A stretch of DNA of 64,000 nt from Rubrivivax sp. (GTDB lineage Bacteria > Pseudomonadota > Gammaproteobacteria > Burkholderiales > Burkholderiaceae_C), in assembly GCA_030680415.1 (NCBI GenBank), contig JAUXVE010000066.1, positions 30,899 to 94,898 of the forward strand, in the 5' to 3' direction. Position 1 is the stretch's first letter. Each line of letters opens with the position of its first letter. Made by a program: the position numbers and the translations under genes. The notes below the pieces were generated by a model. That model saw only the letters and a list, made by a program, of their open reading frames with translations, made no database searches and was not told where the DNA came from. Positions 17,640-45,370 of this stretch are shown here, piece by piece.

Positions 17640-17657
17640 GCTGCGATGCGGCCCGCG

Positions 17658-21347: not shown

Positions 21348-22055
21348 GTGTCCAGCCGTTCGCTCAAGCCCCTCGAGCGCCAACCCGTGCTGGTCGAGCA
21401 GGTCTACGACGCGCTGCGCCTGCAGTTGCGCAATGGCGGCGTGCGCCCGGGTCAAGCCCTGCAGGAAGTGCGGATCGCCGAGCAACTGGGTGTCTCGCGC
21501 ACGCCGGTGCGCGAAGCGATGGCGCGGCTGGCCAGCGAGGGCCTGCTCGCCACCGATCGACGCAGCTTCACGGTGCCTGCGCTCACGCTGGCCGACGTCG
21601 ACGACATCTACGAGCTGCGCTGCCTGATCGAACCGGCCGCTCTGCGCCGCGTCGCGCAACTGGCCGGCGACGCCACGCTGCGACAGGACATCGACCGCGC
21701 CCTGGTCGACGCGGCGGGGGCCCATCGCGCGGGCGACAGCCAGGCCTTCCAGGACGCCAACGTGCGCTACCGCGCGGCGTGGCTGGCCCTGGTGCCCAAC
21801 CAGCGCTGGGTGCGCATGATCGAGCTGTACGCCGACCACATGCAGCACATCCGTGCCGTCACGCTCGGCAGCTCCAGCGTGCGCACGATCGTGCTGCGGG
21901 GCCTGAAGCGCATCACCGCCGCGCTGAGCACCGGCGACGGCGACGCCGCGGCCGCGGCCATGCACGAGCACCTGCTGCAGGCACGCCACGCCTTCATCCG
22001 TGCCGTCGGGCTCGACGGCCAGGCTGCGGTTCAACGAAGGAGCAAGGGCTCGTGA
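21348..22055 (+). CDS. GntR-family regulator (HTH + FCD) heading the iaa-like operon
   Basis: IAEQLGVSRTPVREAMARL HTH; GGAGG RBS near 21337; start at GTG 21348 or TTG 21342. Confidence 0.88.
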   Translation: MSSRSLKPLERQPVLVEQVYDALRLQLRNGGVRPGQALQEVRIAEQLGVSRTPVREAMARLASEGLLATDRRSFTVPALTLADVDDIYELRCLIEPAALRRVAQLAGDATLRQDIDRALVDAAGAHRAGDSQAFQDANVRYRAAWLALVPNQRWVRMIELYADHMQHIRAVTLGSSSVRTIVLRGLKRITAALSTGDGDAAAAAMHEHLLQARHAFIRAVGLDGQAAVQRRSKGS

Positions 22056-23263
22056 ACTACCTCGCCGCGATCCCCTACGGTGCCTACTGGTGCACGCCCT
22101 TCGCGCGCTGGCAGGGCAGTTTCGCCCACCTCCACAGCGTGGAGTTCGCGGCCCACGTGGCGCGGCGCGAGCTGGCGCGCCGCGGTATCGACGCGGCGCG
22201 CTTCGACTACGGCGTGCTCGGCTTTTCGGTGCCGCAGAAGCACTCGTTCTACGGCCTGCCTTGGCTGACGGGCCTGGTCGGCGCCACGCAGGCCGGCGGC
22301 CCGACCCTGATGCAGGCCTGCGCCACCGGCGTGCGCACGCTGCTCGCCGCCGCGCAGGAGATCGAGGTCGGCCTGGCCACCACGGCGCTGGTGATCAACT
22401 GCGACCGCACCTCCAACGGCCCGCACCTGTACTACCCCAACCCGCGCGGCCCCGGCGGCACTGGCGTGGCCGAGGACTGGGTGCTGGACAACTTCGGCTG
22501 CGATCCGCTGGGCGGGCACTCGATGCTCGCCACCGCGGAAAACGTCGCAATGCGACACGGCATCGACACGGCACAGCAGCACGAGGTGGTGCTGCACCGC
22601 GAAGCCCAGTACACGCAGGCCCTGGCCGACAACTCGGCCTTCCTGCGGCGCTTCATGACCCTGCCCTTCGAGGTGCCCGGGCCCGGCTTCAGGAAGACCG
22701 TGGCCGTGCTCGAAGGCGACGAGGGCATCTCGCACTCGACCGCCGCGGGGCTGGCCGCACTCAAGCCCGTCACTCCAGGCGGCAGCGTCACCTTCGGTGG
22801 CCAGACGCACCCGGCCGACGGCAACGCGGGCCTGCTGGTGACCACCCGCGAGCAGGCACGCGAGCTGGCGGTCAACCCGAAGATTGCGGTGCGCCTGCTC
22901 GGCTTCGGCCTGGCGCGCGCCGAACTGGCCTACATGCCCGAGGCCACGGTGCCGGCAGCGCAGCGCGCGCTCGCGCAGGCCGGACAGCGCATCGAGCAGA
23001 TGGCAGCCGTCAAGACGCACAACCCGTTCGCCCTCAACGACCTTCTTTTCGCGCGCAGCACCGGCATCGACTGGCGGACCATGAACAACTACGGGTGTTC
23101 GCTCGTCTGGGGTCACCCGCAAGCGCCGATGGGCACGCGCGCGATCATCGAACTGATCGAGGAGCTCGCGCTGCGTGGCGGCGGCTTCGGCCTGTTCACG
23201 GGCTGTGCGGCCGGCGACACCGCGATGGCGGTCGTGCTCGAGGTCTGCGATGCCGCGGCCTGA
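22052..23263 (+). CDS. iaaA: Thiolase (IaaA-like)
   Basis: Catalytic motifs QACATG, THNPFA, WGHPQ, GCAAG; symbol assigned from position in an iaa-type gene order. Confidence 0.72.
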   Translation: MNYLAAIPYGAYWCTPFARWQGSFAHLHSVEFAAHVARRELARRGIDAARFDYGVLGFSVPQKHSFYGLPWLTGLVGATQAGGPTLMQACATGVRTLLAAAQEIEVGLATTALVINCDRTSNGPHLYYPNPRGPGGTGVAEDWVLDNFGCDPLGGHSMLATAENVAMRHGIDTAQQHEVVLHREAQYTQALADNSAFLRRFMTLPFEVPGPGFRKTVAVLEGDEGISHSTAAGLAALKPVTPGGSVTFGGQTHPADGNAGLLVTTREQARELAVNPKIAVRLLGFGLARAELAYMPEATVPAAQRALAQAGQRIEQMAAVKTHNPFALNDLLFARSTGIDWRTMNNYGCSLVWGHPQAPMGTRAIIELIEELALRGGGFGLFTGCAAGDTAMAVVLEVCDAAA

Positions 23264-23346
23264 AGCGAGCCGAACCATGCGGCCGAAGCCGCGCGCCGAT
23301 GCCTGCCGGGCGAGTGGCGCGCCAGGCTGAGCCGGAGGCCGATGCG

Positions 23347-24897
23347 ATGCCGCTCGCCGACTGGATTGCCGCCCATGCCAGGCGCACGCCGGCCCGGGTC
23401 GCCGTTCGTTTCGAAGACCAGACCCTGAGCTACGGCGGCCTCGCGGCGCGTTGCGAACAGATCGCCGGCGCCCTGTGTGCGGCCGGGGTGGCGCGCGGCG
23501 AGCGTGTCGCCTGGCTGGGCCTGAACTGCCCGGCGATGCTCGCCACGCTGTTCGCCTGCGCCAGACTCGGCGCGATCTTCATGCCCCTGAACTGGCGCCT
23601 TGCGCCGGCCGAGCACAAGGCGATGCTGCACGACTGCCTGCCCGCGGTGCTGTGTGCCGACGACGCCTACGCCGCCGCCAGCGCCGCCGCAGGCATCGCG
23701 CCGGCAGGCACACGCTGCGTCGCACGCAGCGCCGCCCCTGCCGGCTGGACACGCTGGGACGCTTTCCTCGCCGCGGCGCGGCCGCCGGCAGCGAGCGAGG
23801 CGGCGGTGGACAACAGCGCGCCGCTGCTGCTGTGCTACACCTCGGGCTCGACGGGGCGGCCCAAAGGCGTGCTGCTGAGCCAGGACGCCCTGGCCGCCAA
23901 CGCCGACGCCAGCGTCGACATGCACGCGATGACCAGCGACGACCGCGTGCTGACGACGCTGCCGCTGTTTCACGTCGGCGGCCTGAACATCCAGACCACG
24001 CCGGCGCTGCGCACCGGTTGCACCGTCGTGCTGCACGCCCGCTTCGACCCCGATGCCGTGTTCGACGCCATCGAGCGCGAACGCATCACGCTGACCGTGC
24101 TGGTGCCGGCGCAACTCGACGCGATGATCGCGCACCCGCGCTGGGCCCACGCCGACCTCTCGAGCCTGCGCATGATCAGCACCGGTTCGACGATGGTGCC
24201 CGAGCGCCTGATCCGCACCGTGCACGCACGCGGCGTGCCGCTGGTGCTGGTCTGGGGCGCCACCGAAACCGCGCCCATCGCGGCCTGCCTGCATGCCGAC
24301 GAGGCCATGCGCAAGGTCGGCTCGACCGGTCGCGCCGCCGCCGGGTGCGAACTGCGCATCGTCGACGCCGCCGGCCGCGACGCCGCACCGGGCAGCAGCG
24401 GCGAGATCCTCGTGCGCGGGCGCACCGTGATGAGCGGCTACTGGCGCGATGCGCCCGCCACCGCCAGGGCGCTGGCCGGAGGCTGGTACCACTCGGGCGA
24501 CAGCGGTCACTTCGACGACGACGGCTATCTCCATGTCGATGGCCGGCTCAAGGACATGATCATTTCGGGCGGCGAGAACGTCAGTCCGGCCGAAGTCGAA
24601 GCGGTGCTGCTCGAGTGCCCGGCCGTGGCCGAGGCGGCCGTCGTCGGCCGCGCCGACGAGCGCTGGGGCGAGGCGGTCGTCGCCGTCGTCACGGCGGCGC
24701 CCGGCGCGACGCTCACCGCCGAGCGCGTGATGGCCCTGTTCGACGGCCGGCTCGCGCGCTTCAAGCAACCCAAGCAGGTGTTCGTCGTCGACGCGCTGCC
24801 GCGCACGGCGCTGGGCAAGGTGCGCAAGGAAGAGGTGCGGCAGCTCGTCGCCCGTCTGGGCGCAGCGGCGCCCATCCACGTGGGGCGTATCGAATGA
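23347..24897 (+). CDS. iaaB: Acyl-CoA ligase (IaaB-like indoleacetate-CoA ligase)
   Basis: YTSGSTGRPKG, WGATET, SGDSG, DGRLKDMIISGGEN, PRTALGK; symbol from synteny. Confidence 0.7.
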   Translation: MPLADWIAAHARRTPARVAVRFEDQTLSYGGLAARCEQIAGALCAAGVARGERVAWLGLNCPAMLATLFACARLGAIFMPLNWRLAPAEHKAMLHDCLPAVLCADDAYAAASAAAGIAPAGTRCVARSAAPAGWTRWDAFLAAARPPAASEAAVDNSAPLLLCYTSGSTGRPKGVLLSQDALAANADASVDMHAMTSDDRVLTTLPLFHVGGLNIQTTPALRTGCTVVLHARFDPDAVFDAIERERITLTVLVPAQLDAMIAHPRWAHADLSSLRMISTGSTMVPERLIRTVHARGVPLVLVWGATETAPIAACLHADEAMRKVGSTGRAAAGCELRIVDAAGRDAAPGSSGEILVRGRTVMSGYWRDAPATARALAGGWYHSGDSGHFDDDGYLHVDGRLKDMIISGGENVSPAEVEAVLLECPAVAEAAVVGRADERWGEAVVAVVTAAPGATLTAERVMALFDGRLARFKQPKQVFVVDALPRTALGKVRKEEVRQLVARLGAAAPIHVGRIE

Positions 24898-27023
24898 GTC
24901 TCAAGATCGGCATCGACGTCGGCGGCACCTTCACCGACTTCGTCGTCGCCCGCGACGGCGAGCCGCCGCGCATCCACAAGACCCTGTCGACGCCGGCCGA
25001 CCCGTCGATCGCCGTCGTCGAGGGGCTGGCGCAGATCGCCGCGGGCATGCACCCGCCGCCGACCTTGCAGGAGTTCGCGCGCTCGATCGGCACCATCGTG
25101 CACGGCACGACCGTGACCACCAACGCCACGCTCACCAGCAGCGGCGCGCGCTGCGCGCTGCTGACCACCGAGGGCGTGCGCGATGCGCTGGAGATGCGCC
25201 GCGGCGTGCGCGAGGAGCAGTACAACAACCGCTATACCAACGTGCGCCCGCTGGTGCCACGCGAGCGCCGCATCGGCATCCGCGGCCGCATCGACCGCGA
25301 CGGCGCCCAGACCACGCCGCTCGACCTCGACGCAGTGCGCGCGGCGCTGGCGCTGTGGCGCGCCGACGGTGTGCAGGCCGTCGCGCTGTGTTTCATGAAC
25401 GCCTACGCCAACCCGGCGCATGAGCAGGCGGCGGCCGAGATCGTGCGGCGCGAGCTGCCCGACGCGTACTTGTCGGTGTCCACCGACGTGTTGCCGTCGA
25501 TCCGCTTCTACGACCGCGTCAGCACCACGGCGCTGAATGCCTACGTCGGCCCCAAGCTCGAGCATTACCTCGACCAGCTGGTCGAGCGGCTCGCCGGCAT
25601 CGGCTTCGGCGGGCTGCTGCTGATCATGCAGTCCAACGGCGGCGTGATCTCGCCGCAGGCGGCGCGCGACAAGGCAGCCTTGACGCTGCTGTCGGGGCCG
25701 GCCGGCGGGCCCGGCGCGGGGCTGTTCTATGTCGCTGCGCACGGGCAGCGGCGCTGCATCACCACCGACATGGGCGGCACCAGTTTCGAGGCCTCGGTCG
25801 CGGTGGGTGCGCCGATGGTCAAGAACGACGGCGAGATCGCGCGCCACCGGATCGCGCTGCCGATGCTCGACATCCACACCATCGGCGCCGGTGGCGGCTC
25901 GATCGGCTGGCTCGACGAAGGAGGCCTGCTGCGCATGGGCCCGCACAGCGCCGGCGCCGACCCCGGCCCGGCCTGCTATGGCCGCGGCGGCCGGCTGCCC
26001 ACCACCACCGACGCCAATGCCGTGCTCGGCTACCTCGACCCGGCGTTCTTTGCCGGCGGCCGCATGACGCTGGACGTGCAGGCGGCGCGGCGCGCGATCG
26101 AAGAGCACATCGCGCAGCCGATGGGGCTGAGCATCGAGCAGGCGGCCGCCGGCATGTACCGCGTGGCCTGCAACAACATGGCACAGGGCGTGCGTGAGGT
26201 GACCATCAAGCGCGGTTTCGACCCGCGCGAGTTCCCGCTCATTCCCGGCGGCGGCGCCGGCCCGATCCACGGCTGCCTGATCTGCAGCGAGCTCGGCATC
26301 CCGCTGCAGATCGTGCCGCGCGAGGCCTCGGTGCTGTGCGCCTTCGGCATGCTGATGAGCGAGCTGCGGCACGACTTCGTGCGCACCTTCGTCGCCCGCC
26401 TGGAAGGCATCGACTGGGCGCGTCTGTCGGCGCTGGTCGCGGCGATGGCGGCCGAGGGCACACGCCTGCTCGCCGCAGAGGGCATCGAAGCCGCACGCCG
26501 GCGCGTCGACCTGCGGCTGGATTGCCGCTACGTCAAGCAGTACCACGAGGTCTCGGTGGCGGTGCCGGGGGATCTGGTCGAGCGCCGCGACGCCGGCGCC
26601 ATCGCGGCCGCGTTCCATGCCGAACACCTGCGTCTGTACGGCTACTCGCTGCAGGCCGAGGGCTCGGCGGTCGAGATCATCAACGTGCGGCTGCAGGCGA
26701 TCGGCGCCACCGAGCGCCCAACCTACCGCAGCGAGGCGGCAGGCGACGCCGACGCCAGCCCGGCGCTGAAGGGCCGACGCCGCGTCTACGTTCCCGAGCG
26801 CGACGCCTACGCCGAGGTGGCGGTCTACGACGGCCACCGCATGCGCAGCGGCCAGCGCCTCGCCGGGCCGGCGCTGATCGAACAGGAGACCACCGCGATC
26901 CTGGTCAGCGACTCCTTCGACTGCGTGGTCGACGCGCTCGGCTCGTTCGTGCTCTACGCCAAGGGCCGGGAAGACCTGGTGGCCGCCAGCCTGCAGCAAG
27001 GGCAAGAGGAGGTGTGCAAGTGA
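24894..27023 (+). CDS. iaaC: Hydantoinase A/oxoprolinase-family ATP-dependent amidohydrolase subunit (IaaC-like)
   Basis: IDVGGTFTD, HGTTVTTNA, MQSNGG, LSGPAGG, DMGGTS, IGAGGGS, AGADPGPACYG. Confidence 0.78.
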   Translation: MSLKIGIDVGGTFTDFVVARDGEPPRIHKTLSTPADPSIAVVEGLAQIAAGMHPPPTLQEFARSIGTIVHGTTVTTNATLTSSGARCALLTTEGVRDALEMRRGVREEQYNNRYTNVRPLVPRERRIGIRGRIDRDGAQTTPLDLDAVRAALALWRADGVQAVALCFMNAYANPAHEQAAAEIVRRELPDAYLSVSTDVLPSIRFYDRVSTTALNAYVGPKLEHYLDQLVERLAGIGFGGLLLIMQSNGGVISPQAARDKAALTLLSGPAGGPGAGLFYVAAHGQRRCITTDMGGTSFEASVAVGAPMVKNDGEIARHRIALPMLDIHTIGAGGGSIGWLDEGGLLRMGPHSAGADPGPACYGRGGRLPTTTDANAVLGYLDPAFFAGGRMTLDVQAARRAIEEHIAQPMGLSIEQAAAGMYRVACNNMAQGVREVTIKRGFDPREFPLIPGGGAGPIHGCLICSELGIPLQIVPREASVLCAFGMLMSELRHDFVRTFVARLEGIDWARLSALVAAMAAEGTRLLAAEGIEAARRRVDLRLDCRYVKQYHEVSVAVPGDLVERRDAGAIAAAFHAEHLRLYGYSLQAEGSAVEIINVRLQAIGATERPTYRSEAAGDADASPALKGRRRVYVPERDAYAEVAVYDGHRMRSGQRLAGPALIEQETTAILVSDSFDCVVDALGSFVLYAKGREDLVAASLQQGQEEVCK

Positions 27024-28711
27024 CGACCATCGACCCGATCCTGTTGACCGTCTACGCGCGCACCTTCAAGTCGATCACCGACGAGATGAGCATCTCGATG
27101 GCGCAGACCACGCGCAGCCCGATCCTGTGCGAGGCCAAGGACTACGTCACCGGCCTCTACGACGCCGAAGGGCGCATGCTCGAGCAGACCGAGAACCTGC
27201 CGATCCTGGCCTTCTCGCTGGCGCCCGTGTGCAAGCACATCCGCAAGACCTTCGACGGCGAGATCTATCCCGGCGACGTCTTCTTTCACAACGACGTCTT
27301 CACGCTGGGCAATCAGAACAACGATGTCGCAGCCTTCAAGCCGGTGTTCGTCGACGACGAACTGGTGGGCTGGACGGCGGTCAAGGGCCACCAGGCCGAC
27401 ATCGGCGGCGCGGTCGCCGGCGGCTACAACCCGAACGCGGTCGAGGTCTGGCAAGAGGCGCTGCGCATCCCGGCGGTCAAGATCGTCGAGCGCGGCCGGC
27501 TGCGCCAGGACGTGTGGAACCTGATCTTCGCCAACGTGCGGCTGGACATCGTGCAGCACGACATGAAGGCCGAGATGGGCGCCTGCACGGTGGGCGAGCG
27601 GCGCCTGGTCGAGCTGCTGCGCAAGTACGGCGTGGCCAGCTACACCGCGCACAAGCAGGCCTTGTTCGATGCCACGCGGCGCATGATGGAAGCCGAGATC
27701 GCCAAGATCCCGAACGGCCGCTACAGCGGCGAAGGCCGTGTCTACTACGACGGCCGCCACGAAGGCAGCAAGTTCACGATCCGCGTCGACATCGAGGTCC
27801 AGGACAAGCGCATCAGGTTCGACTACTCGCGCACCGACGCGCAGACCAACGGCTTCGTCAACGGCACCTTCACGTCCAGCGCCTCGGCCACCATCCTGAC
27901 GCTGCTGCAGATGGTCAACCCCGACATCCCGCACAACGAGGGCATGGTCGAGCCGATCGAGATCGTGATCCCCGAAGGCACGATCCTCAACGCCGCGTAC
28001 CCGAAGGCGACGACCTTCGGCAACCACCTGTGCCCGCCGAATGCCGACGCCATCCAGCGCGCCCTGGCGCCAGTGCTGCCGGACCGGGGGACGGCCGGCT
28101 GGAACAACCTGCTGGCCGCGCTGACCACCGGCATCGACCCCAGGACGGGCGAGAAGTACGTCGACATCGGCTTCATGGGCTTGAAGGGCGGCTCCGGCGC
28201 GATGCAGGGCTGCGACGGCTACGACCACATCGGCATGATCGACGCTTCGGGTGGTGTGCTCGACCAGGACTACGAGATGTTCGAGCAGCAGACGCCGCAC
28301 CGCCTGATCAAGCACGAGTTGCTCACCGATACGGCCGGCGCCGGCCAGTGGCGCGGCGGCCTGGGCGTGGAGACGATCTTCGAGATCGGCTCGCACGACA
28401 CCCAGCTCGTGACCTTCGGCGATGGCGATTTCGAAGGCGCCTTCGGTCTCGCGGGCGGCCACGGCGCGGGCCTGAACTTCATCCGCCTTCACTATCCCGA
28501 TGGCCACACCGAGGTGCCGCGCAACAAGGACCTCATCACCGGCGTGCCGTGCGGCACGGTCTACCACCAGGTGGCCAATGGCGGCGGCGGCTGGGGCGAT
28601 CCCTTGCTGCGCGACCGCAAGGTGCTGGCCGAAGAAGTGCGCAATGGCGTGATTTCGCGCGCCGCGGCAATGCGCGACTACGGCATGACCGAGCCGGACT
28701 TCGATCGATGA
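27020..28711 (+). CDS. iaaE: Hydantoinase B/oxoprolinase-family subunit (IaaE-like)
   Basis: TTRSPILCEAKD, KGHQADIGG, GAGQWRGGLG, GGGGWGDP; GTGA overlap with the hydantoinase A gene. Confidence 0.78.
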   Translation: MTTIDPILLTVYARTFKSITDEMSISMAQTTRSPILCEAKDYVTGLYDAEGRMLEQTENLPILAFSLAPVCKHIRKTFDGEIYPGDVFFHNDVFTLGNQNNDVAAFKPVFVDDELVGWTAVKGHQADIGGAVAGGYNPNAVEVWQEALRIPAVKIVERGRLRQDVWNLIFANVRLDIVQHDMKAEMGACTVGERRLVELLRKYGVASYTAHKQALFDATRRMMEAEIAKIPNGRYSGEGRVYYDGRHEGSKFTIRVDIEVQDKRIRFDYSRTDAQTNGFVNGTFTSSASATILTLLQMVNPDIPHNEGMVEPIEIVIPEGTILNAAYPKATTFGNHLCPPNADAIQRALAPVLPDRGTAGWNNLLAALTTGIDPRTGEKYVDIGFMGLKGGSGAMQGCDGYDHIGMIDASGGVLDQDYEMFEQQTPHRLIKHELLTDTAGAGQWRGGLGVETIFEIGSHDTQLVTFGDGDFEGAFGLAGGHGAGLNFIRLHYPDGHTEVPRNKDLITGVPCGTVYHQVANGGGGWGDPLLRDRKVLAEEVRNGVISRAAAMRDYGMTEPDFDR

Positions 28712-29841
28712 ACTTCGACCTCAGCGAAGACCAGCGCGCGATCCGCGACACCTTCGCGCGCTTCAGCGACCAGCGCATCGCGCCGCAGGCGGCGGCGCTC
28801 GACGAGGCGCGAACCTTTCCGCGCCAGCTCTTCGGCGAACTGGCCGCGCTCGGCTTCTTCGGCATGCGTTACCCCGAGGACGTCGGCGGCAGCGGCGCCG
28901 GCCTGCTGGAGTACTCGCTCGCGCTGGCGGAGATCGCACGCGGCTCGATGTCGCTGGCTGGCGCCGCGGCGATGCAGTCGCTGATGGGAACCAAGTTCCT
29001 GCACATGCTCGGCAACGCCGACATCGTCGAACGGCTGTTCAAGCCCGCGCTGCAGGGCCGCAAGATCGGCGCCATCTGCATGACCGAGCCCGACGCCGGC
29101 TCGGACCTGGACGCCATCGCCACCACGGCACGCAAGGTCGATGGCGGCTATGTGCTGAACGGCCGCAAGACCTGGATCACCTCGGCGCCGGTGGCCGACT
29201 TCTTCACCGTCTTCGCCAAGGCCGGTGCGGAAAACAAGCTCACCATCTTCCTGGTCGAGAAGCACTTCGCGGGTTTCAGCGTCGGGCGCGAGATCCACAA
29301 GATGGGTGTGTGGGCGCTGCCGACCTCTGAGGTCGGGTTCGCTGAATGCTTCGTGCCCGACAGCCACCGCCTGTCGAAAACCGAAGGCGACGGCGAGGCG
29401 CATCTGCGCAAGACGCTGGCCGAGATACGCATCATCACCGGCGCCATGGCGCTGGGCGTGGCGCGCGCGGCGCTGGCGGCGGCGCTGGCATATGCCGGCG
29501 AGCGCAAGCAATTCGGCAAGCCGATCAACCGCTTTCAGGCCATCCAGTTCAAGCTCGCCGAGATGGCCACCGACCTCGAAGCCGCGGTGCACCTGGTGCA
29601 CTACGCGGCCTGGCTGCATGGCGCCGGGCGGCCGCACCACAAGGAAGCGGCGATGGCCAAGCTCAACGCCAGCGAGGCCGCGGCGCGCATCTGCGACCAG
29701 GCCGCACGTGTGCTGGCCAGCTACGGCTACGCGATGGAGTACCCGGTGCAGCGCCACCTGCGCGACGTGCGCTTCACGCTTATCGGTGGCGGCACCAGCG
29801 AGATCCTCAAACTCATCATCGCCAAGGAAGTGTCGTCATGA
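28708..29841 (+). CDS. iaaF: Acyl-CoA dehydrogenase (IaaF-like)
   Basis: CMTEPDAGSD, LNGRKTWIT, RKQFGKPI, IGGGTSEI; symbol from synteny. Confidence 0.75.
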   Translation: MNFDLSEDQRAIRDTFARFSDQRIAPQAAALDEARTFPRQLFGELAALGFFGMRYPEDVGGSGAGLLEYSLALAEIARGSMSLAGAAAMQSLMGTKFLHMLGNADIVERLFKPALQGRKIGAICMTEPDAGSDLDAIATTARKVDGGYVLNGRKTWITSAPVADFFTVFAKAGAENKLTIFLVEKHFAGFSVGREIHKMGVWALPTSEVGFAECFVPDSHRLSKTEGDGEAHLRKTLAEIRIITGAMALGVARAALAAALAYAGERKQFGKPINRFQAIQFKLAEMATDLEAAVHLVHYAAWLHGAGRPHHKEAAMAKLNASEAAARICDQAARVLASYGYAMEYPVQRHLRDVRFTLIGGGTSEILKLIIAKEVSS

Positions 29842-30236: not shown

Positions 30237-30313
30237 ACCATCGCACGGCCGTCCGAAGACGGTTCACGCCCCCGCGGGGGGCAGGCGCGGCACGCGCCAA
30301 GGGGGCCATTTGA
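30233..30313 (+). repeat. REP-like intergenic element E2; 26-aa mini-ORF bridging iaaG stop and iaaH start
   Basis: ATGA overlap at 30233-30236 and TTGA overlap at 30310-30313; same core motifs as E1. Confidence 0.7.
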
Positions 30314-35720: not shown

Positions 35721-36916
35721 AGCCACGCACAGTGCTGTCGATGGAACAGGCCCTGTCCTTGCCTTACGCGACGCTGCGCTTCGCCCAGCTCGGCTGGCGC
35801 GTCATCCGCATCGAGGCCACGCCGTCCGGCGCCGGCCTGCCCGGTGACCCGAACCGCTACATCGGCAGCCGCCTGAGCGACGACCACGACGACGACCGCC
35901 GCAGCTACTTCGTGGCACCGAATGTCGCCAAGGAAGCGATCGCGCTCAACCTGAAGGACGCCCGCGGCCAGCACTTGCTCGCACGCCTGATCAACGCCTT
36001 GGATGTCGACGTGTTCTGCTGCAATACGCTGCCGTCTCGCTACGGCAGTCTGGGCATCGCCCCGGCCACGCTGCGCGCCGTGCGCCCGCAACTCATCTGG
36101 GCCGGCATCTCGGCGCAGGGTCCGGCCTGGCCCGAGGCACCGGGCTACGACCCGGTGTTGCAGGCGATGGCCGGCTATATGGAAGTCACCGGCGACCGCA
36201 ACGGCCCGCCGATGCTGACCGGCATCCCGGTCATCGACCTCAAGGCCGGCGACGAACTCTTCGCGGGGGTGATGATGGCGCTGCTGGAGCGGCACGAGAC
36301 CGGCGCCGGCAAGGAGATCCATGTCTCCATGCTGCAGGCCGCGGCCTCGTGGCTGATCACCGTTTTGCCCTTGATCGATTTCGGCTGCCAGCCCGGCGAG
36401 ATCACGCGCGCCGGCAACGAGCACCGCAAGTTCATTCCCACCAACGTCTACCCGGCGCGCGACGGCTACCTGTTCATGGCCATCGGCAGCGACGTGCAAT
36501 GGCGGCGATTCACCGCGATCCCGAAGTTCACGTGCGTCGCCAACGAGCTGCGCAAGACCAACGAAGGACGCCACCAGGAGCGCGAGGCGATCCACCGCGA
36601 CATTGCCGCGGTGACCGCTGCGCACCCGGTCGACGAGACGCTGGCCGAGCTGCGCGGCGCCACCATCCCGGCCACGCGCATCAACGACATCCGCCAGGTG
36701 CGCGAGTTGCCCCAGCTGCGCGACAAGCTCACCCGCACCACGCTGCCCGAGGGGCGCAGCGTGCGCATGCAGCCGATGGCCGTGGACCTGCCGCAGGCGA
36801 GCGCCGAATTCGCTTTCGCACCGAAGTATGGCCAGCACACGCGCGAAGTGCTGGCCGAGGCCGGCTTGGGCAACGACGAGGTGCATGCGCTTTACGGCGC
36901 AGGCATCGTGGCCTGA
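35717..36916 (+). CDS. iaaL: Family III CoA-transferase (CaiB/BaiF; IaaL-like)
   Basis: [32 protein letters not shown]. Confidence 0.75.
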
Positions 36917-36972: not shown

Positions 36973-38112
36973 ATGAGTCACAAAAACATCGCCGCCATCG
37001 CACTGGCCGGCGTCCTCGCCGTCGGCGCCGCCCAAGCCGAGATCACGATCGGGGTCTCGCTGGGCACCACCGGGCCTGGATCGTCGTTGGGTGTCCCCTA
37101 CAAGAACGCGTTCCAGCTGGTACCGAAGACGCTCGGCGGCGAGCCGGTGCGCTACATCATCCTGGACGACGAGTCCAAACCCGATGGCGCCGCGAAGAAT
37201 GCCCGCAAGTTCGTCAGCGAGGACAAGGTCGACGCGCTGATGGGCTCCAACGGCGTGCCCTCGGGGGTGGCGATCGCACAGGTCGCAGCCGAGTCGAAAA
37301 CGCCGATGATCTCGCTGACGCCACTGCCGCCGCTGGCACCCGAGCGAGCGCACTGGACCTTCATCGTGCCGCAGCCGACCGAACTCATGATGAGCGCGGT
37401 GGCGCAGCACATGAAGAGCAAGGGCGTCAAGAAGGTCGGCTTCATCGGCTTTTCCGACACCTGGGGCGACCTGGTCTACAACGCCGTGACCGCCCTGGCC
37501 CCCACCGGCGGCTACGAGGTCCAGAGCAACGAACGTTACGGCCGCGCCGACACCAGCGTCACCGGGCAGGTGCTGAAGGTCATGGCCGGATCGCCCGACG
37601 CGGTCATCGTCGGCGGCTCGGGTTCGCCCGGCGCCACGCCGCACATCGCCCTCGTCGAGCGAGGCTACAAGGGGCAGATCTACCACAACCACGGCACCGT
37701 CAACCTGCCCTTCATCCAGACCGGCAAGAAGGCGGTCGAAGGCGCGATCGCGCCGACCGGTGCACTGATCGTGGCCGAGGAACTGCCTGCCGACTTCCCG
37801 ACCAAGGCGGTGTCGCTGGACTTCGTGAAGCGCTACGAGGCCGCGTTCGGCGCCGGCAGCCGCAATGCGTTTGCCGGCTACAGCATCGACGGCGTGCTGG
37901 TTCTCGACGCCGCTGCCGGCGTGGCATTGAAGCGGGCCAAGCCCGGCACGCCGGAGTTTCGGGCGGCCCTGCGCGACGCGCTCGAGAACATCAAGAACGT
38001 CGTCGGCACGCACGGTGTCTACAACATGAGTCCGGCCAACCACAACGGGCTGGACGAACGCGCGCGCGTACTGGTGCAGGTGGTCAATGGCGAATGGCGG
38101 CTGTTGAAGTAG
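36973..38112 (+). CDS. iaaM: ABC transporter substrate-binding protein (Liv-type, aromatic acid; IaaM-like)
   Basis: Signal peptide; [31 protein letters not shown]. Confidence 0.72.
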
Positions 38113-38161: not shown

Positions 38162-39208
38162 ATGACCGGCGACATCGCGCTCTGGCTGATCCAGGACGGT
38201 GTCACCACCGGCGCGATCTACGCGCTGCTGGCGCTGGCCCTGCTGCTGGTGTTCGCCGTCACGCGCATCATCTTCGTGCCGCAGGGTGACTTCATTTCCT
38301 ACGCCGGCCTCACCCTGGGCACGCTGCAGCTGGGGCAGTTGCCGGGCACGGTCTACCTGCTGGCAGGCGGCGGTGCGCTCGTCGCGACGATCGAAGCCGC
38401 GGCAGCGCTGCGCGCCAGGAAGCCTTTCCTGCTGCCGCGCATCCTGGTCTTCCACCTTGGCCTGCCGCTGTCGATCGTGGCGCTGGCCGTCTGGGCCGCG
38501 CCGCGCCAGCTCGGCCTCGCGCTGCAGATGGCCTTGACGCTGGCCATCGTGGTGCCCTTGGGGCCGATGCTGTACCGCCTCGCCTACCAGCCGCTGGCCA
38601 ACGCGTCGGTGCTGGTGCTGTTCATTGTTTCCATGGCTGCGCACTACGTCCTCACCGGCCTCGGCCTGGTCATCTTCGGCGGCGAGGGTTTGCGCTCGAA
38701 TCCCATCTCCGAACTGAAGTTCGACGTCGGTGTCCTGCACATCGGCGCACAGAGTCTGTGGGTCGTCGGCACGAGCGTGGTCTGCATGACCGCGCTGTGG
38801 CTGTTCTTCGGTCACTCGCTTTACGGCAAGGCGCTGCGCGCCACGGCGTTGAACCGCATCGGCGCCCGGCTGGTCGGCATCCCGGGCGCGCTGGCCGGAC
38901 GCCTGGCGTTCCTGCTCGCCGCAGCGATCGGCGCGCTGTCGGGCGTGCTGATCTCGGCGTTCACGACGATCTACTACGACACCGGGCTGATGATCGGCCT
39001 GAAGGGCTTCGTCGGCGCCATCCTCGGCGGCATGGCCAGCTACCCGTTGGCCGCACTCGGGGCCTTGGCGGTGGGTCTGATCGAGGCCTTTGCGTCGTAC
39101 TGGGCCAGCGCATTGAAGGAGAGCATCGTCTTCACCTTCATCATTCCGGTGCTGTTGTGGCGCTCGCTGGTCTCGCGCCATCCGGTGGTCGAGGACGAAG
39201 AGGAATGA
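38162..39208 (+). CDS. Branched-chain amino acid-type ABC permease (LivH-like)
   Basis: [36 protein letters not shown]. Confidence 0.88.
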
Positions 39209-40968
39209 CCCGGTCGCGTCACGTGCTGGCAGTCTGCCTCGTCGGCCTGGCTGCCGCGCCATTGCTGTTGCCGGAGTTCTACGTCACGCTGCTCAATTAC
39301 GTCGGCCTGGCGACCTTGGTGGTACTTGGGTTGGTGGTGATGACCGGCGTGGCCGGGATCGTCTCGTTCGGCCAGCAGGCCTTCGTCGGCGTGGCCGCCT
39401 ACGCCACCGCAGGCCTGACCACTCTGTTGGGCTGGTCGCCCTGGGCTTCGCTCGCAGCCAGTATTGCGCTCGTCGCCGCCACGGCGCTGCTGATCGGCCT
39501 CGTCACGCTGCGCCTGTCCGGGCACTACCTGTCGATCGCGACGATCGCCTGGGGCATCGCGATCTACTACCTGTTCGGCAACCTGCCGCTGCTGGGCCAG
39601 TACAGCGGCATCGACAACGTGCCCGCGGTGTCGATTGCAGGCTGGGCCTTCGACAGCGGACGCAAGTCCTGCTTCCTGATCTGGACCATCACCGCGGTCG
39701 CACTGCTTGCAGCGCACAACCTGCTCGATTCGCGCCCCGGCCGCGCGATCCGGGCGCTGCGTTTTCGCAGTGTCATGGCCGAAAGCTGCGGCGTCGACAC
39801 CTCGACGCTCAAGCTCGTCGTCTTTGTCTATGCCGCCGTGCTCGCCGGCATCGCGGGCTGGCTGCATGCCCACTACCTGCGCTTCGTCAGCCCGCATGCG
39901 TTCGGCGTCAACGCCGGAATCGACTACCTGTTCATGGCCGTCATCGGTGGCGCGAACCAGGTCTGGGGCGCAGTGGTCGGCGCGGCGATCATGACCGTGC
40001 TCAAGGAGTGGCTGAAGGACCTCACGCCGATCCTGTTCCAGACCACAGGCAACTACGAAATCATCGTCTTCGGCGTGCTCATGCTGCTGTTGTTGCATCG
40101 CACGCGCAATGGCATCGCACCCGCGCTTGCGCGTTGGCTTCCCGCCCGCCCAGCCCGCACGCGCCCGGCCGATGCACCCGAGCCACCGCCGCGCGAGCGC
40201 CCCGCCGCCGGCGTGCCGCTCTTGCTGGTGGCCGGTCTGCACAAGCGCTTCGGCGGTCTGGTTGCGGTGAAGGACCTGTCGTTCTCGCTCGACGCGGGCG
40301 AGATTCTGGGCCTCATCGGCCCCAACGGCGCTGGCAAGACCACCGTGTTCAATCTCCTGAGCGGCACACTGGCCGGCGACGGCGGCACGGTCCATCTGCT
40401 CGGGCAGCGCATCGACAGGCTGCCCTCGCGTGTGATCGCCCGGCGCGGGCTGGCGCGCAGCTTTCAGCATGTCAATCTGGTCTCGAGCATGAGCGTGCTC
40501 GACAACGTCGCGCTCGGCGCACACCTGCGCGGGCACAAGGGCAGCGTGGCGGCCATGCTGCGCACCGACCGCGACGAAGAGGCCCAGCTGCTGGCCGAGG
40601 CGGTGCGACAGATCGAGCGCGTGGGCCTGGCCGAGCACATGATGGCCGCGGCGGGCAGCCTGCCGCTGGGCCAACAGCGCGTGGTCGAGATCGCGCGCGC
40701 GCTGGCCGCCGACCCCTTGTTGCTGCTGCTGGACGAGCCGGCCGCCGGGCTGCGTTACGGCGAAAAGCGCGCGCTGGCAGAGCTGTTGCGGCGCCTGCGC
40801 GCCGAGGGGCTGACCATCCTGCTCGTCGAGCACGACATGGAATTCGTGATGGGCCTCGTCGACCGCCTGGTCGTGATGGATTTCGGCGAGAAACTGGCCG
40901 AGGGCCCGCCGCTGGACATCCAGCGCGACCCCGCGGTGGTCGAAGCCTACCTCGGGGGCATCGCATGA
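39205..40968 (+). CDS. ABC permease-ATPase fusion (LivM + LivG-like)
   Basis: Membrane domain ([15 protein letters not shown]) followed by GPNGAGKTT and LLLDEPAAG. Confidence 0.88.
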
Positions 40969-41066
40969 GTCCGCCGCGCCGCTCCAAGGGCGAAGTCCGG
41001 GCTGCGCAGCACGAAGGGTCAGCCGTCGGTCCGGCACGGCAAGCCCGACAAGGGTGCCCGCGATGA
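40965..41066 (+). repeat. Intergenic element E3 (related REP-like type); 33-aa mini-ORF bridging both genes
   Basis: ATGA overlaps at 40965-40968 and 41063-41066; [18 protein letters not shown]... Only one copy of this subtype is in the window. Confidence 0.5.
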
Positions 41067-41791
41067 CGCGTCTGCTCGAAGTACGTGACCTCGTCGTCCG
41101 CTACGGCAGGGTCGAGGCCCTGCACGGCGTGAACCTGGACGTCGATGCGGGCTCCATCGTCACCGTGATCGGCCCGAACGGCGCCGGCAAGACGACGCTG
41201 CTGGCCGCGCTCATGGGCCTGCTGCCCAGCAGGGGAACGGTGCGCTACGCCGGCGGCGAAGTGGCCGCGATGCCGGTCGAGGCGCGTGTGGCTGCTGGCG
41301 TGTCGCTGGTGCCCGAGCGGCGCGAGCTGTTCGGCGAGCTCTGCGTCGAGGACAACCTGCGCCTGGGCGCGTTCCATCGCGTGCGCCGCGGCGAGCGTGG
41401 CGCCGACATGGATCTGGCTCCGATCTACGCGCGTTTCCCGCGCCTGCAGGAACGCCGGCGCCAGCTCGCCGCCACTTTGTCGGGGGGCGAACGCCAGATG
41501 CTGGCGATCGGACGCGCGCTGATGGCCAAGCCCAGACTGCTGATGCTCGACGAACCCAGCCTCGGTCTGGCGCCGCGCATCGTGCGCGACATCCTGCATA
41601 TCGTCGGCGAGCTGCGCGAGACCGGCGTGGCGATCCTGCTGGTGGAGCAGAACGCGCGCGCCGCGTTGCAGATCGCCGACCGCGGCTATGTGCTCGAGAC
41701 CGGCGAGGTCGCGCTGGTGGGCACCTCGGCCGAACTCGCCGGCAACCCACGCGTGGTCGAGTCCTACCTTGGCTTTGGCGGCACGGCATGA
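41063..41791 (+). CDS. ABC transporter ATP-binding protein (LivF-like)
   Basis: [26 protein letters not shown]. Confidence 0.9.
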
Positions 41792-43335
41792 ACCTCGCAA
41801 CCAGAGCGCTGCCTTGCACCTGGCCGACGGTGGTCGAGATGCTCGCGGCTGCGGCGGCCGACGCACCGGCCAGCGAGGCGCTGGTCTGTGGCGAGCGCCG
41901 CATCGACTACGCCACCTACCTCGCCTGCGTTGCCGGCTTCGCGCGCGAGCTGGAGCCTCTGGGCGCGCGGGGCGGCCGCGTCGCCACGCTGGTCGGCAAC
42001 TCGATCGAGGCCTGTGTGGCCGCGTTCGCCGCCCTGGCCGCTGGCGCCCAGCAGGTGCCGCTGAACCCGCTGTACACCGAGCATGAACTCGGGCCGATCC
42101 TCGAGGACGCCGCACCGATCGTGCTGGTGGTCGACGAGGCGGCGGCGCGCATGGCCGAACCGGTCGCCCGGCGCGCCGGCGTCCGGCACGTGATCGTGGT
42201 TGGCGACCACACCCGGCGGCTCGACACCTGGCGCGCCGGCGAGGCCGGGTTGCCGCCCCTGCCCGACGCGCAGTCACTGGCCCTGCTGCAGTACACCGGT
42301 GGCACCACCGGCCGCGCCAAGGGCGTGGATCTGAGCCACCAGGCGATTGCGATCAACGTCGCGCAGCGCGAGGCCTTGCTGCCCAGCCACCGTGGCGACC
42401 GCATCCTGTGCATGATGCCGCTGTCGCACGCTTACGGCATGGCCATGGGCCTGTTCCTCGCTGCCTATTGCGGCGGCGTGCTGGTGATCCTGCCGCGCTA
42501 CCAGCCCGACGAGGTGCTCGCGGTGGTGCCGCGCGAGCGCATCGGCGTGTTTCCGGGCAGCCCGACGGTGTTCGTCGGGCTGATGGCGCACCCTGATTTC
42601 GGCCGCACCGATTGGCGCAGCGTGCACACCTGCTACTCGGGCGCGTCGGCGCTCGCGTCGGCCACGCTCGAACGCTGGCGCGAGGCCGTCGGCGCCCCCG
42701 TCTACGAGGGCTACGGCCTGACGGAGGCCGGGCCGGTGCTGTCGTTCAACCCCGCCGGCCGCCCGGCCAGGCCGGGCTCGGTGGGCGTGGCGGTGCCGTT
42801 GACCGAGATCGAGATCGTCGATGTCGAGAGCGGGCTCGCGGTGTTGCAAGCCGGGCAGCGCGGCGAGATCCGCGCCCGCGGCCCGCAATGCATGCGCGGT
42901 TACCGCAACCGCCCCGACGAGACCGCGCTGGCGCTGCGCGACGGCTGGCTCTACACCGGAGACATCGGCGAATTCGACGCCGATGGCTATCTGTACATCC
43001 GCGACCGCAAGAAGGACATGGTCATCGTCGGCGGCTACAACGTCTACCCGCGCGAAGTCGAAGACCTGCTGTTCAGCCACCCCGATGTGGCGGACGCGGC
43101 GGTGGTCGGCGTGCCCGACGCCTATCGCGGCGAGGTGCTCGTCGCCTTTGTCGTGCTGCGTGCCGGCGCGCTGGCCGATGTCGATGCGCTGCAGGCGCAT
43201 TGCCGCGCCAAGCTCGCCAGGTACAAGGTGCCGACGCGCCTGCGAATTGCCGATGCTTTGCCCAAAACCTTGGTCAACAAGACCGACAAGAGCGCGTTGC
43301 GGCGCGCGGCCGCGGCCGACGCCGAAGCCGATTGA
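41788..43335 (+). CDS. Second acyl-CoA ligase (AMP-binding)
   Basis: [37 protein letters not shown]. Confidence 0.88.
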
Positions 43336-43351
43336 ATCCCGGGAGCCAGCC

Positions 43352-45370
43352 TTGACCTCGACCCGCTTCGCCAATCCCCTGCTGCAGCCCGCGACACGGC
43401 CGCAGCCGCGTCACATCGGCGTCATCGGCGCGGGCACGATCGGCCCCGACATCGCCTACTACCTGAAGGGCGCGCTGCCGGGGCTGAAGCTGACGCTGGT
43501 CGACATCCGCCAGGCGGCAATCGATGCCGCACTGGCGCGGTTGCGCGAGTACACCGACAAGGCCTTGGCGCGCGGCAAGCTCACCGCCGCGGCCGCTCGA
43601 GAGCTGCCGCAGGGCCTGCACGGCAGCACCGACTACGGCACGCTGGCCGACTGCGACTGGGTGCTCGAGGCAGCGACCGAGGACCTGGCGCTCAAACGCC
43701 GCATCTTTGCCGAGGTCGAAGCGCGCGTTGCCAGCGACGCGGTGATCACCTCCAACACCAGCTCGTTGCCGGCGGCGCGCATCTTCGCCGCCCTGCGCCA
43801 CCCCGAGCGCGCGACCGTGACGCACTTTTTCGCGCCCGCCTGGCGCAACCCGGCGGTGGAAGTCATCGACTGGCCGCGCGCCGACCCCGCGCTCGTCGCC
43901 TGGTTGCGGCGCTTGTTCTGCGCCACCGGCAAGCTGCCGCTGGTGACGGCCGACGCGCCCTGCTTCATGCTCGACCGCGTGTTCGACAACTGGTGCAACG
44001 AGGCCGCCCTGCTGCTCGGCGACGCCACCGCGGCCGCGATCGACAGCGTCGCCGGCGAGTTCGTGCACGCCGGGCCGTTCTTCGTGCTCAACCTGGCGCA
44101 CGGCAACCCGATCATCATCGAGACCAACACGCTGCAAGCCGACGAGGAAGGCGAGCACTACCGGCCGGCCGCCATCTTCCGCTCGGTCGAGCGCTGGCTC
44201 ACCGGCGCCCCCAACCGGCCCGCCGAAGTGCCGGCCCCGACGCGGGCACGCATCCGTGACCGTCTGCTCGGCGTGCTGCTGTCGCAAACGGTGGACATCC
44301 TGGACCGCGGCATCGGCGGCGCGGCCGACCTCGACCTGGGCTGCCGCACGGCGCTCGGCTTCAAGCAGGGGCCGATCGAGCTGATGCGCGGGCTGGGCGA
44401 GGCCGAGGTCGCCCGTCTGCTCGAACGATTCGGACATGATCGGCCCGGCATGCCGGTGGCGCAGCGTGCCCTGGCCACCTACCTGCCGGCCGAGCGCCAC
44501 GTGCTGGTCGACCGCATCGACGACGTGCTCGTGATCACGCTGCGCCGGCCCGAGGCGCTGAACGCGTTGCACGACGAGATGACCGACGAGATCCTCGCGC
44601 TGCTGCGCCGGCACGAGGACGACGCGGCCGTCGCCGGTTTCGTCATCGTCGGCTACGGCACCAAGGCCTTCTGTGCCGGCGGCGACATCGGCCGCTTTCC
44701 GTCGCTGCTGGGCAACGCCGAGGCGGCGGCGCAATATGCGCGCGACTGCTCGCGGCTGCTGGTGCATCTGGACCGCAGCACCAAGCCGGTGGTCGCCGCG
44801 CTGAACGGCATGGCGCTCGGCGGTGGCCTGGAGCTGGCGATGCGCTGCCACGCCCTGGTGGCGCAGCGCAGCGCGTGGCTGCAAATGCCCGAAGTCACAC
44901 TCGGCATCCTGCCGGCCATCGGTGCGATGGTGGTGCCATTCCGCCGCTGGCCGGCGGCGGCCGCGGTCTTCTACGGCATGCTGACACGCGCCGAACGCGT
45001 CGACGCCGCCCAGGCCCATGGTCTGGGCATCGTCGACGAATTGGCCGAGGACTTCGATGCGCTGATCCGCCAGGCCGTGGCACGCGTGCACGCGCTGCAG
45101 GGGCGCGTGGGGCGCATCCCCGATGGCGCACAGACGCTGCCGCCCTTCGAGCCCGGTGAGGCGCGCACGGCCGAGGGTCGCGCACTCAGTCCGACCGTGG
45201 TGGGATTGATCGCCGGCGCGGTGCGCGACGCGGCGTCGTCGCCGACGCTGGAGCAGGCGCTCGAGATCGGCTATCGCGCGTTCGGCGTCGTCGCCTGCAC
45301 CGCCGCGGCGCATGAAGGCATAGCCGCCTTTCTGGCCAAGCGAGACGCCGACTTCAGCGCCACGGGGTAA
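43352..45370 (+). CDS. iaaP: 3-hydroxyacyl-CoA dehydrogenase / enoyl-CoA hydratase fusion (IaaP-like)
   Basis: GAGTIG, EAATEDLALK, TSNTSSL, HFFAP; then RPEALNAL, FCAGGDI, GGGLELA; GGGAG before TTG 43352. Confidence 0.72.
   Translation: MTSTRFANPLLQPATRPQPRHIGVIGAGTIGPDIAYYLKGALPGLKLTLVDIRQAAIDAALARLREYTDKALARGKLTAAAARELPQGLHGSTDYGTLADCDWVLEAATEDLALKRRIFAEVEARVASDAVITSNTSSLPAARIFAALRHPERATVTHFFAPAWRNPAVEVIDWPRADPALVAWLRRLFCATGKLPLVTADAPCFMLDRVFDNWCNEAALLLGDATAAAIDSVAGEFVHAGPFFVLNLAHGNPIIIETNTLQADEEGEHYRPAAIFRSVERWLTGAPNRPAEVPAPTRARIRDRLLGVLLSQTVDILDRGIGGAADLDLGCRTALGFKQGPIELMRGLGEAEVARLLERFGHDRPGMPVAQRALATYLPAERHVLVDRIDDVLVITLRRPEALNALHDEMTDEILALLRRHEDDAAVAGFVIVGYGTKAFCAGGDIGRFPSLLGNAEAAAQYARDCSRLLVHLDRSTKPVVAALNGMALGGGLELAMRCHALVAQRSAWLQMPEVTLGILPAIGAMVVPFRRWPAAAAVFYGMLTRAERVDAAQAHGLGIVDELAEDFDALIRQAVARVHALQGRVGRIPDGAQTLPPFEPGEARTAEGRALSPTVVGLIAGAVRDAASSPTLEQALEIGYRAFGVVACTAAAHEGIAAFLAKRDADFSATG

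Follow-up and report, generated by a model that had tools for sequence, protein, structure and literature searches.

What does a 24-kb run of generically named genes do in an uncultured Rubrivivax-like betaproteobacterium? The genes lie at positions 21348-45370 of a 64,000-nucleotide (nt) stretch (contig JAUXVE010000066.1 of assembly GCA_030680415.1, positions 30,899 to 94,898), which in its full length is called the window here. A prediction made from the DNA letters had proposed that they form a complete iaa-type operon for the anaerobic degradation of the auxin indole-3-acetate (IAA). Our comparisons lead to much the same answer: with a probability of roughly 85%, and judging from the sequence, the region is an intact orthologous iaa locus for oxygen-independent IAA degradation. 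The iaa locus of Aromatoleum aromaticum EbN1 and Aromatoleum (Azoarcus) evansii KB740 was reportedly described by Ebenau-Jehle and colleagues in 2012 and by Schuhle and colleagues in 2016. With the EbN1 locus the window is collinear for iaaR-A-B-C-E-F-G-H-I-J-K-L-M (tblastn against the EbN1 locus), and 13 of its proteins are 55-85% identical over their full length to EbN1 Iaa proteins, the binding protein standing apart at about 40%. Low identity to Iaa proteins had been named as an outcome that would speak against the proposal, and these values do not bear it out.

The window has a G+C content of about 70%, so that raw lists of open reading frames (ORFs) are crowded with spurious frames. Genes were defined by third-position GC in each frame together with inspection of start codons, followed by a Pfam scan, which gave 18 genes across 21348-45370, all on the plus strand:

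21348-22055, plus strand: iaaR-like GntR/FCD transcriptional regulator of 235 amino acids (Pfam GntR and FCD; 59% to the EbN1 regulator by tblastn).
22052-23263, plus strand: iaaA-like beta-ketothiolase (Pfam Thiolase_N/C; 79% to EbN1 IaaA).
23299-24897, start at 23299 or 23347, plus strand: iaaB-like indoleacetate-CoA ligase, here ligase 1 (Pfam AMP-binding).
24894-27023, plus strand: iaaC-like hydantoinase/oxoprolinase A subunit, hydA (Pfam Hydantoinase_A; 77% to EbN1 IaaC).
27020-28711, plus strand: iaaE-like hydantoinase/oxoprolinase B subunit, hydB (Pfam Hydantoinase_B; 87% to EbN1 IaaE by tblastn).
28708-29841, plus strand: iaaF-like decarboxylating (2-aminobenzyl)malonyl-CoA dehydrogenase of the acyl-CoA dehydrogenase family (83% to EbN1 IaaF).
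29838-30236, plus strand: iaaG-like B12-binding small mutase subunit (Pfam B12-binding; 72-75% to EbN1 IaaG).
30310-31944, TTG start, plus strand: iaaH-like MCM-like large mutase subunit (Pfam MM_CoA_mutase, 612 bits; 77% to EbN1 IaaH).
31941-32852, plus strand: iaaI-like, CoxM-like FAD subunit of a molybdenum hydroxylase (Pfam FAD_binding_5/CO_deh_flav_C; 59% to EbN1 IaaI by tblastn).
32836-33324, plus strand: iaaJ-like, CoxS-like 2Fe-2S subunit (Pfam Fer2_2; 70% to EbN1 IaaJ by tblastn).
33321-35720, plus strand: iaaK-like, CoxL-like Mo subunit (Pfam Ald_Xan_dh_C/MoCoBD_1/2; 80% to EbN1 IaaK).
35717-36916, plus strand: iaaL-like family III CoA-transferase, predicted (2-aminophenyl)succinyl-CoA transferase (Pfam CoA_transf_3; 66-67% to EbN1 IaaL).
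36973-38112, plus strand: binding protein of an ABC importer (Pfam Peripla_BP_6).
38162-39208, plus strand: permease of the ABC importer (Pfam BPD_transp_2).
39205-40968, plus strand: permease/ATPase fusion of the ABC importer (Pfam BPD_transp_2, ABC_tran).
41063-41791, plus strand: ATPase of the ABC importer (Pfam ABC_tran).
41788-43335, plus strand: second AMP-forming CoA ligase, here ligase 2, an accessory gene (Pfam AMP-binding).
43352-45370, TTG start, plus strand: iaaP-like 3-hydroxyacyl-CoA dehydrogenase/enoyl-CoA hydratase fusion (Pfam 3HCDH_N and ECH_1; 66% to the EbN1 fusion).

All 18 frames are intact and full-length, with a third-position GC of 0.85-0.95. The start of the fusion gene was placed at TTG 43352 on account of N-terminal conservation (M-T-x-x-ANPLL) in relatives; ATG 43253 was rejected, conservation there beginning only from the TTG. 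The genes are tightly packed: the stop of iaaR runs into the thiolase start (GTGA), and of the 17 junctions 11 are overlaps of 4-17 nt, as had been predicted for most of them, the rest being gaps of 16-94 nt. No intergenic gap holds a terminator-like site, the counts of such sites being near the shuffle expectation (4 against 6.8 expected; 7 against 3.8 expected), and consensus scans for promoters and terminators found no match within the intergenic gaps of the cluster. A single transcript is plausible from this layout. The original prediction had the order of the genes it listed right, from the thiolase to the fusion; it passed over the GntR regulator and, between the binding protein and the fusion (38162-43335), three transporter genes and the second CoA ligase. 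Its starting position, 21348, is an exact gene start, belonging to the GTG-initiated regulator and not to the thiolase, which begins at 22052.

To place these genes against the characterised system, we made use of the published sequences of the amplification primers for EbN1 iaaF (ebA2055; PMC8360864). The forward primer, searched as a pattern in 401 genomes of the Rhodocyclaceae-type family, had one exact match, and the reverse primer has an exact match 1.1 kb downstream in the same genome (G134). Going by these matches we take it to be EbN1 or an indistinguishable strain, and call it EbN1. Its IaaF, sought by the primer-derived N-terminus, was not among the 120 best homologs of the window IaaF. 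The minus strand of the EbN1 locus carries the fusion protein and a 302-amino-acid gene, upstream of the GntR gene. After the GntR gene come thiolase, ligase, hydA, a gap (iaaD), hydB, acyl-CoA dehydrogenase and the small and large mutase subunits, and then the FAD, FeS and Mo subunits, the CoA-transferase and the binding protein, in agreement with the published gene list iaaABCDEFGHIJKLMPQR (PMC9613470).

Global identities between window and EbN1 proteins are 55% for R, 79% for A, 59% for B, 77% for C, 85% for E, 83% for F, 72% for G, 77% for H, 57% for I, 69% for J, 80% for K, 67% for L, 66% for P and 41% for M. When EbN1 IaaA-L, IaaP and IaaR were searched against the whole host genome, each had its best match inside the cluster by a wide margin over the next one (79% against 25% for IaaA, 60% against 34% for IaaB, 77% against 34% for IaaC, 83% against 40% for IaaF, 77% against 42% for IaaH and 66% against 32% for IaaL). 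In the opposite direction, ligase 1 searched against the whole EbN1 genome found IaaB at 60% with the next best match at 34%, and is thus a reciprocal best hit; this whole-genome search was made for IaaB, the remaining window proteins being set against the EbN1 locus region. The BLAST comparison with EbN1 Iaa proteins, which had been suggested as a check on the prediction, accordingly places the best matches in the cluster with the exception of IaaM.

Apart from gene order, the two loci have in common the GGG motif of IaaF, the DxHxxG motif of IaaG, a GntR regulator with a shared upstream palindrome, and 2-aminobenzoyl-CoA as the predicted end product. They also differ in several respects. The window has neither iaaQ nor the iaaD fragment, of which no remnant can be present because hydA and hydB overlap directly. 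Its iaaP fusion is the 3'-most gene and has the orientation of the others, while that of EbN1 is divergent and upstream of iaaR; its iaaR and iaaA overlap; its iaaG and iaaH are separated by a REP-like insert; a MatB-like CoA ligase and a downstream IOR-like gene have been added; and its binding protein, a different member of the family, comes with a full set of permeases and ATPases.

Individual enzymes carry hallmarks of the pathway. In all IaaF orthologs, GGG takes the place of the catalytic YEG of other acyl-CoA dehydrogenases, and this GGG-type subclass is confined to iaa-type operons (PMC8360864). In the window IaaF, GGG replaces YEG in the context …FTLIGGGTSE… (…RFTLIGGGTSEILK…; the protein ends …FTLIGGGTSEILKLIIAKEVSS), and 119 of its 120 closest homologs have GGG as well; in three other genomes, IaaF orthologs (about 85%) are cleanly set apart from paralogs (at most 42%). 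The cobalamin-binding DxHxxG motif of IaaG reads DGHDQG at residues 17-22, the same sequence as in EbN1. For automated annotation, generic and unrelated family names had been forecast, and this is supported: there is no Iaa-specific NCBIfam model, all enzyme matches fall below their cut-offs (the best for hydA being caprolactamase alpha), and public relatives go under names such as 'acyl-CoA dehydrogenase family protein' or 'butyryl-CoA dehydrogenase'.

The same enzyme families could also serve another substrate, be it another indole or arylacetate derivative or an N-heterocycle. The least conserved enzymes, IaaB and IaaI (57-60%), a binding protein without clear orthology to IaaM and an additional ligase of unassigned specificity would fit such a substrate. 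Set against this are a 13-gene set collinear with an IAA-induced locus and supported by reciprocal best hits, the restriction of GGG-type IaaF to iaa-type operons, and ring-opening, mutase and dehydrogenase enzymes that are 77-85% identical, as is typical of same-function orthologs; we consider a different substrate very unlikely. Aerobic degradation of IAA by iac (Pseudomonas putida 1290) or iad (Variovorax, Achromobacter) clusters shares the substrate and, for iad, an ABC importer (PMC9613470). The enzymology of these clusters is unrelated, with oxygenases, MarR regulators and catechol or anthranilate-type products. They are defined by oxygenases (IacA; Rieske-type IacCD/IadDE) together with a MarR regulator (PMC9613470), and Pfam found no Rieske, ring-hydroxylating dioxygenase or MarR domain among the 18 cluster genes.

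If the region is an iaa locus, how would IAA be degraded? From orthology to the Aromatoleum enzymes we infer the following course. IAA would be taken up by the cluster-encoded ABC importer and activated to indoleacetyl-CoA by the IaaB-like ligase. The IaaIJK-like molybdenum hydroxylase, with water as the oxygen source, is predicted to hydroxylate C2 of the indole ring, giving the 2-oxo (oxindole) form, whose lactam the IaaCE-like hydantoinase-type enzyme is predicted to open at the expense of ATP to yield (2-aminophenyl)succinyl-CoA. IaaL would then transfer CoA intramolecularly between the two carboxyl groups, the B12 mutase IaaGH would rearrange the skeleton to (2-aminobenzyl)malonyl-CoA, and IaaF would oxidise and decarboxylate this to 2-aminocinnamoyl-CoA. 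In a round resembling beta-oxidation, the hydratase/dehydrogenase fusion and the thiolase IaaA would finally produce 2-aminobenzoyl-CoA and acetyl-CoA, which may feed into benzoyl-CoA metabolism.

In Aromatoleum, IaaB, IaaL, IaaGH and IaaF have been characterised, and the same authors put forward the remaining steps as proposals (PMC8360864). In the current scheme the first step is the conversion of IAA by IaaB to indoleacetyl-CoA (PMC8360864, Fig. 1 legend). The iaa-type route of the original prediction is supported; its beginning with free 2-oxo-IAA needs correcting. The label 'anaerobic' likewise holds in part: the pathway does not depend on oxygen, but EbN1 grows on IAA about equally well aerobically and anaerobically (PMC8360864), and the term is therefore best read as oxygen-independent.

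The host genome (4.76 Mb in 167 contigs, 96% complete, 4% contaminated) encodes routes into which these products could flow. Outside the window there are a Thauera-type BcrB, the B subunit of benzoyl-CoA reductase (C20:26001-27236, 776 bits against a cut-off of 487) and a BoxB benzoyl-CoA oxygenase (C87:47732-49144, 900 bits against 499), and the genome also has a NarG respiratory nitrate reductase (C15:16605-20351, 2176 bits against 1084). With BcrB, BoxB and NarG in one genome, a 2-aminobenzoyl-CoA or benzoyl-CoA product should be usable with or without oxygen, and with all three over their family cut-offs the host is marked as a facultative nitrate-respiring degrader of aromatic compounds.

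How widely is this arrangement shared? The large mutase subunit identified 444 relatives among species-representative genomes, and we examined the best 80 (77-97% identical). They come from betaproteobacterial isolates and metagenome-assembled genomes (MAGs) labelled Rubrivivax, Ideonella, Ramlibacter, Azohydromonas, Rhodocyclaceae, Sulfuritalea and Ca. Desulfobacillus, many of them sampled from wastewater, groundwater or peat. As far as the contigs extend, the core order R-A-B-C-E-F-G-H-I-J-K-L is found in all 80 related loci, and judging from this shared order the arrangement is not due to chance. The 3' tails vary, consisting of the fusion alone, of ligase 2 and the fusion, or of importer genes; the tail of the window, importer followed by ligase 2 and fusion, is also that of Ramlibacter monticola KACC 19175. 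The latter (L016/L086) and four Burkholderiales MAGs (L012, L028, L031, L041) have an order identical to that of the window at 64-92% protein identity, and the extended order in common reads R-A-B-C-E-F-G-H-I-J-K-L-M-permease-permease/ATPase-ATPase-ligase2-fusion-IOR. Compared with them, the window alone has an opposite-strand alpha/beta-hydrolase gene between fusion and IOR-like gene and a 78-bp insert between iaaG and iaaH. In the family of the host, an IaaF ortholog (81-85% identity) turned up in 3 of the 150 further genomes sampled, a rarity that suggests patchy inheritance, possibly through horizontal transfer.

Two further variants among these loci may be recorded. The hydroxylase subunits I/J/K are just about 50-60% identical to those of the window in 16 loci (L017, L020, L023, L025, L033, L036, L037, L038, L043, L045, L049, L055, L058, L062, L070, L078), while subunit K is 75-88% identical in the remaining loci and EbN1, a split which implies that two hydroxylase lineages serve one operon type. 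In seven loci (L034, L046, L052, L061, L063, L075, L076), the collinear hydantoinase A/B genes are missing from their place between ligase and IaaF; the majority carry instead a distant hydantoinase paralog (29-38%), encoded on the other strand 5' of the regulator, and L061 and L076 show the A subunit only.

One feature raises the question of whether the cluster still works in this host, namely the interruption between the two mutase genes:

30233-30313, plus strand: hairpin-bearing, GC-rich, REP-like insert of 78 bp, recognised by comparison with relatives.

In most relatives iaaG and iaaH overlap directly through ATGA (CCATGAAACGC), and the insert sits at the exact position of this ancestral overlap. 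It was found only in the window and in a relative that is 97% identical (L001); at this junction L018, L035, L038, L054, L069 and L074 have inserts of 43-345 nt that are unrelated to it. The insert carries a mini-ORF of 26 codons that begins with an ATG overlapping the stop of iaaG and ends with a TGA overlapping the TTG start of iaaH, which keeps the stop/start relay across it (ATGA … TTGA). The cluster could be decaying or non-functional in the host, through this insert, which parts iaaG from iaaH and goes with a change of the iaaH start from ATG to TTG, or through lost downstream capacity. That would be hard to reconcile with 18 intact frames out of 18 that align over their full length, a third-position GC as expected of selected coding sequence, a relay that has been retained in the 97% relative, and the intact Thauera-type BcrB and BoxB elsewhere in the genome, and we regard decay as extremely improbable.

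Several points nonetheless weigh against an intact locus for IAA degradation and have to be counted. The insert, by interrupting the translational overlap of iaaG and iaaH, might together with the TTG start of iaaH lower mutase expression. IaaB, the ligase on which the substrate would depend, shares only 59-60% identity with its characterised counterpart; the PDB holds no close solved structure for it, the best being a feruloyl/fatty-acyl-CoA synthetase. The cluster binding protein has 39-41% identity with EbN1 IaaM, and a paralog encoded on contig C65 reaches the same score; clear IaaM orthology is not supported by these comparisons. The 302-amino-acid gene at the iaaQ position of EbN1 has no match in the host genome at E<=1e-10. 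Even in Aromatoleum, the steps assigned to IaaIJK, IaaCE, IaaA and IaaP are proposals (PMC8360864). The evidence on the host, finally, is that of a genome assembly.

Upstream of the regulator gene we found a candidate site for its control:

21293-21302: perfect 10-bp palindrome CTGTATACAG, likely the IaaR operator, 46 nt 5' of the iaaR start.

The palindrome is part of an extended motif, TCTGTATACAGTATGCA, at 21292-21308. Allowing at most two mismatches, a ACTGTATACAGT-like motif precedes the GntR gene at the equivalent position in 41 of 57 sequences, EbN1 included (ATACTGTATACAGTAT), and it occurs a single time in the 64-kb window. The AT-rich palindrome has the GT…AC form that is typical of GntR-family operators. 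Given its position and conservation, it is likely the operator of IaaR, a GntR-type regulator that probably acts here, 5' of its own gene, as a repressor of the operon; binding of the regulator there and induction by IAA would both be expected under an iaa reading. The same motif helped to fix the gene start: TTG 21234 was rejected for the regulator, the conserved AT-rich palindrome falling inside that extension, and GTG 21348 was chosen because the motif lies inside the longer ORF and because a Shine-Dalgarno sequence, GGAGG, precedes this codon at 21337-21341. A GC-rich palindrome, CCCGGGGTATCGATACGCCGGG (21099-21120), was rejected as an operator, being conserved in none of 55 relatives. A scan for FadR-type TNGTN(3-5)ACNA sites gave no shared upstream site, with zero matches in EbN1 and five relatives; the single match in the window lies just inside the rejected longer iaaR ORF.

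Further upstream, the window contains a separate plus-strand aromatic-acyl-CoA operon at 9448-20393, with a divergent hexapeptide transferase gene (20448-21035) between it and iaaR. Its genes encode a CoxL-like Mo enzyme, an SDR, a rubrerythrin-like protein, an enoyl-CoA hydratase, an ordinary acyl-CoA dehydrogenase that is 35% identical to IaaF, and a protein of 733 amino acids in which a long N-terminal extension is fused to an AMP-ligase domain.

What, then, do the genes add that EbN1 does not have? Judged from its domains, the segment 36973-41791 is a complete HAAT-type ABC importer of four genes, with two membrane components, two ATPase domains and the Peripla_BP_6 protein, while the EbN1 locus has the binding protein alone and no membrane components. 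Many Burkholderiales relatives likewise have this fuller set, and the same four importer genes are part of the cluster in L012, L016, L028, L031, L033 and L041 at 68-88% identity. Ligase 2 has no EbN1 ortholog (its best EbN1 match is 40% over partial length), and the pair of ligase 2 and fusion recurs in L004, L008, L024 and Ramlibacter monticola. The nearest solved structures are MatB-type malonyl-CoA synthetases (244 bits). Neither a benzoate-CoA ligase, a family absent from its 25 best NCBIfam families, nor an anthranilate-CoA ligase, whose solved enzyme reaches 177 bits against the 244 bits of the MatB type, is supported as an identity. Phenylsuccinyl-CoA isomers are prone to hydrolysis (PMC8360864), and on that ground it is a reasonable guess, no more, that ligase 2 re-activates a dicarboxylate intermediate.

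A last accessory lies beyond the end of the predicted operon at 45370, starting 0.9 kb after the fusion gene:

46302-49784, plus strand: fused IOR-like 2-oxoacid:ferredoxin oxidoreductase (NCBIfam NF009588, 1660 bits against a cut-off of 952).

Of the 29 related loci with sufficient flank, 12 have the same gene downstream of the iaa cluster in the same orientation, at 58-80% identity, and Ramlibacter monticola brings the count to 13 of 30 assessable relatives; the arrangement was noted in L006, L013, L020, L021, L025, L038, L044, L054, L060, L068, L069, L074 and L077. It is only 70 nt from the fusion gene in Ramlibacter monticola (L086 5702-9106), and about 30-40 nt in L006 and L013; this recurrence suggests that it is probably linked to the iaa cluster. 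The host genome has one paralog of 54% identity, on contig C75 and with one in-frame TGA, and the EbN1 genome has no IOR-like homolog anywhere. In the window, an alpha/beta-hydrolase gene (45421-46230, minus strand, with weak PcaD-like matches below cut-off) is placed convergently between fusion and IOR-like gene. None of the related loci has a counterpart, and it therefore appears to be a local insertion into an otherwise continuous operon. Our literature search found no paper connecting the fused IOR-like enzyme with an iaa locus.

This gene opens a possibility that is compatible with an iaa locus for IAA degradation: the chemistry would be the same, but the main input would be tryptophan-derived indole-3-pyruvate, which the IOR-like enzyme would convert directly to indoleacetyl-CoA, leaving IaaB and the importer as a second, scavenging entry. 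Its position on the same strand just downstream, its recurrence at such short distances in other loci, its presence in Burkholderiaceae-labelled and Rhodocyclaceae-labelled genomes alike, and a nearby pyridoxal-phosphate-dependent (PALP-domain) gene all speak in favour. Yet 17 of the 29 assessable loci have no IOR-like gene within the available flank, EbN1, in which the pathway was elucidated, does without one, and in the window the convergent hydrolase gene separates it from the operon. The IOR name of the fused subfamily, moreover, is a matter of homology alone, and the enzyme could by analogy supply reduced ferredoxin to benzoyl-CoA reductase instead, a role for which the KGOR of Thauera is a precedent. 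We hold indolepyruvate as the main input to be possible, though rather doubtful. Slightly less doubtful, and still tentative, is a broader picture in which one betaproteobacterial branch (the host, Ramlibacter monticola and several Rhodocyclaceae and Sulfuritalea MAGs) possesses a funnel for indole side chains with two entries. Free auxin would come in via importer and IaaB and tryptophan-derived indolepyruvate via the IOR-like enzyme, and the MatB-like ligase 2 would re-activate hydrolysed (2-aminophenyl)succinate or (2-aminobenzyl)malonate.

The pathway has already been described, and knowledge of the pathway itself is unchanged by this locus; the additions are modest and consist of the candidate operator palindrome, the REP-like iaaG/iaaH insert and the recurrent IOR-like gene. 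What is gained for the organism is a specific predicted function for 24 kb of generically named genes, which would enable a nitrate-respiring Rubrivivax-like bacterium to remove auxin or the indoleacetyl group without oxygen. The candidate IaaR operator is common to the window and EbN1, and Ramlibacter monticola KACC 19175 is a cultured strain that shares the extended architecture. Outside Aromatoleum, the IOR-like gene, the ABC importer and the second ligase are recurrent accessories that bear on whether such loci scavenge auxin or serve tryptophan catabolism. Should the reading with two entries be true, the 'auxin' pathway would be largely one of tryptophan catabolism in wastewater and soil denitrifiers.

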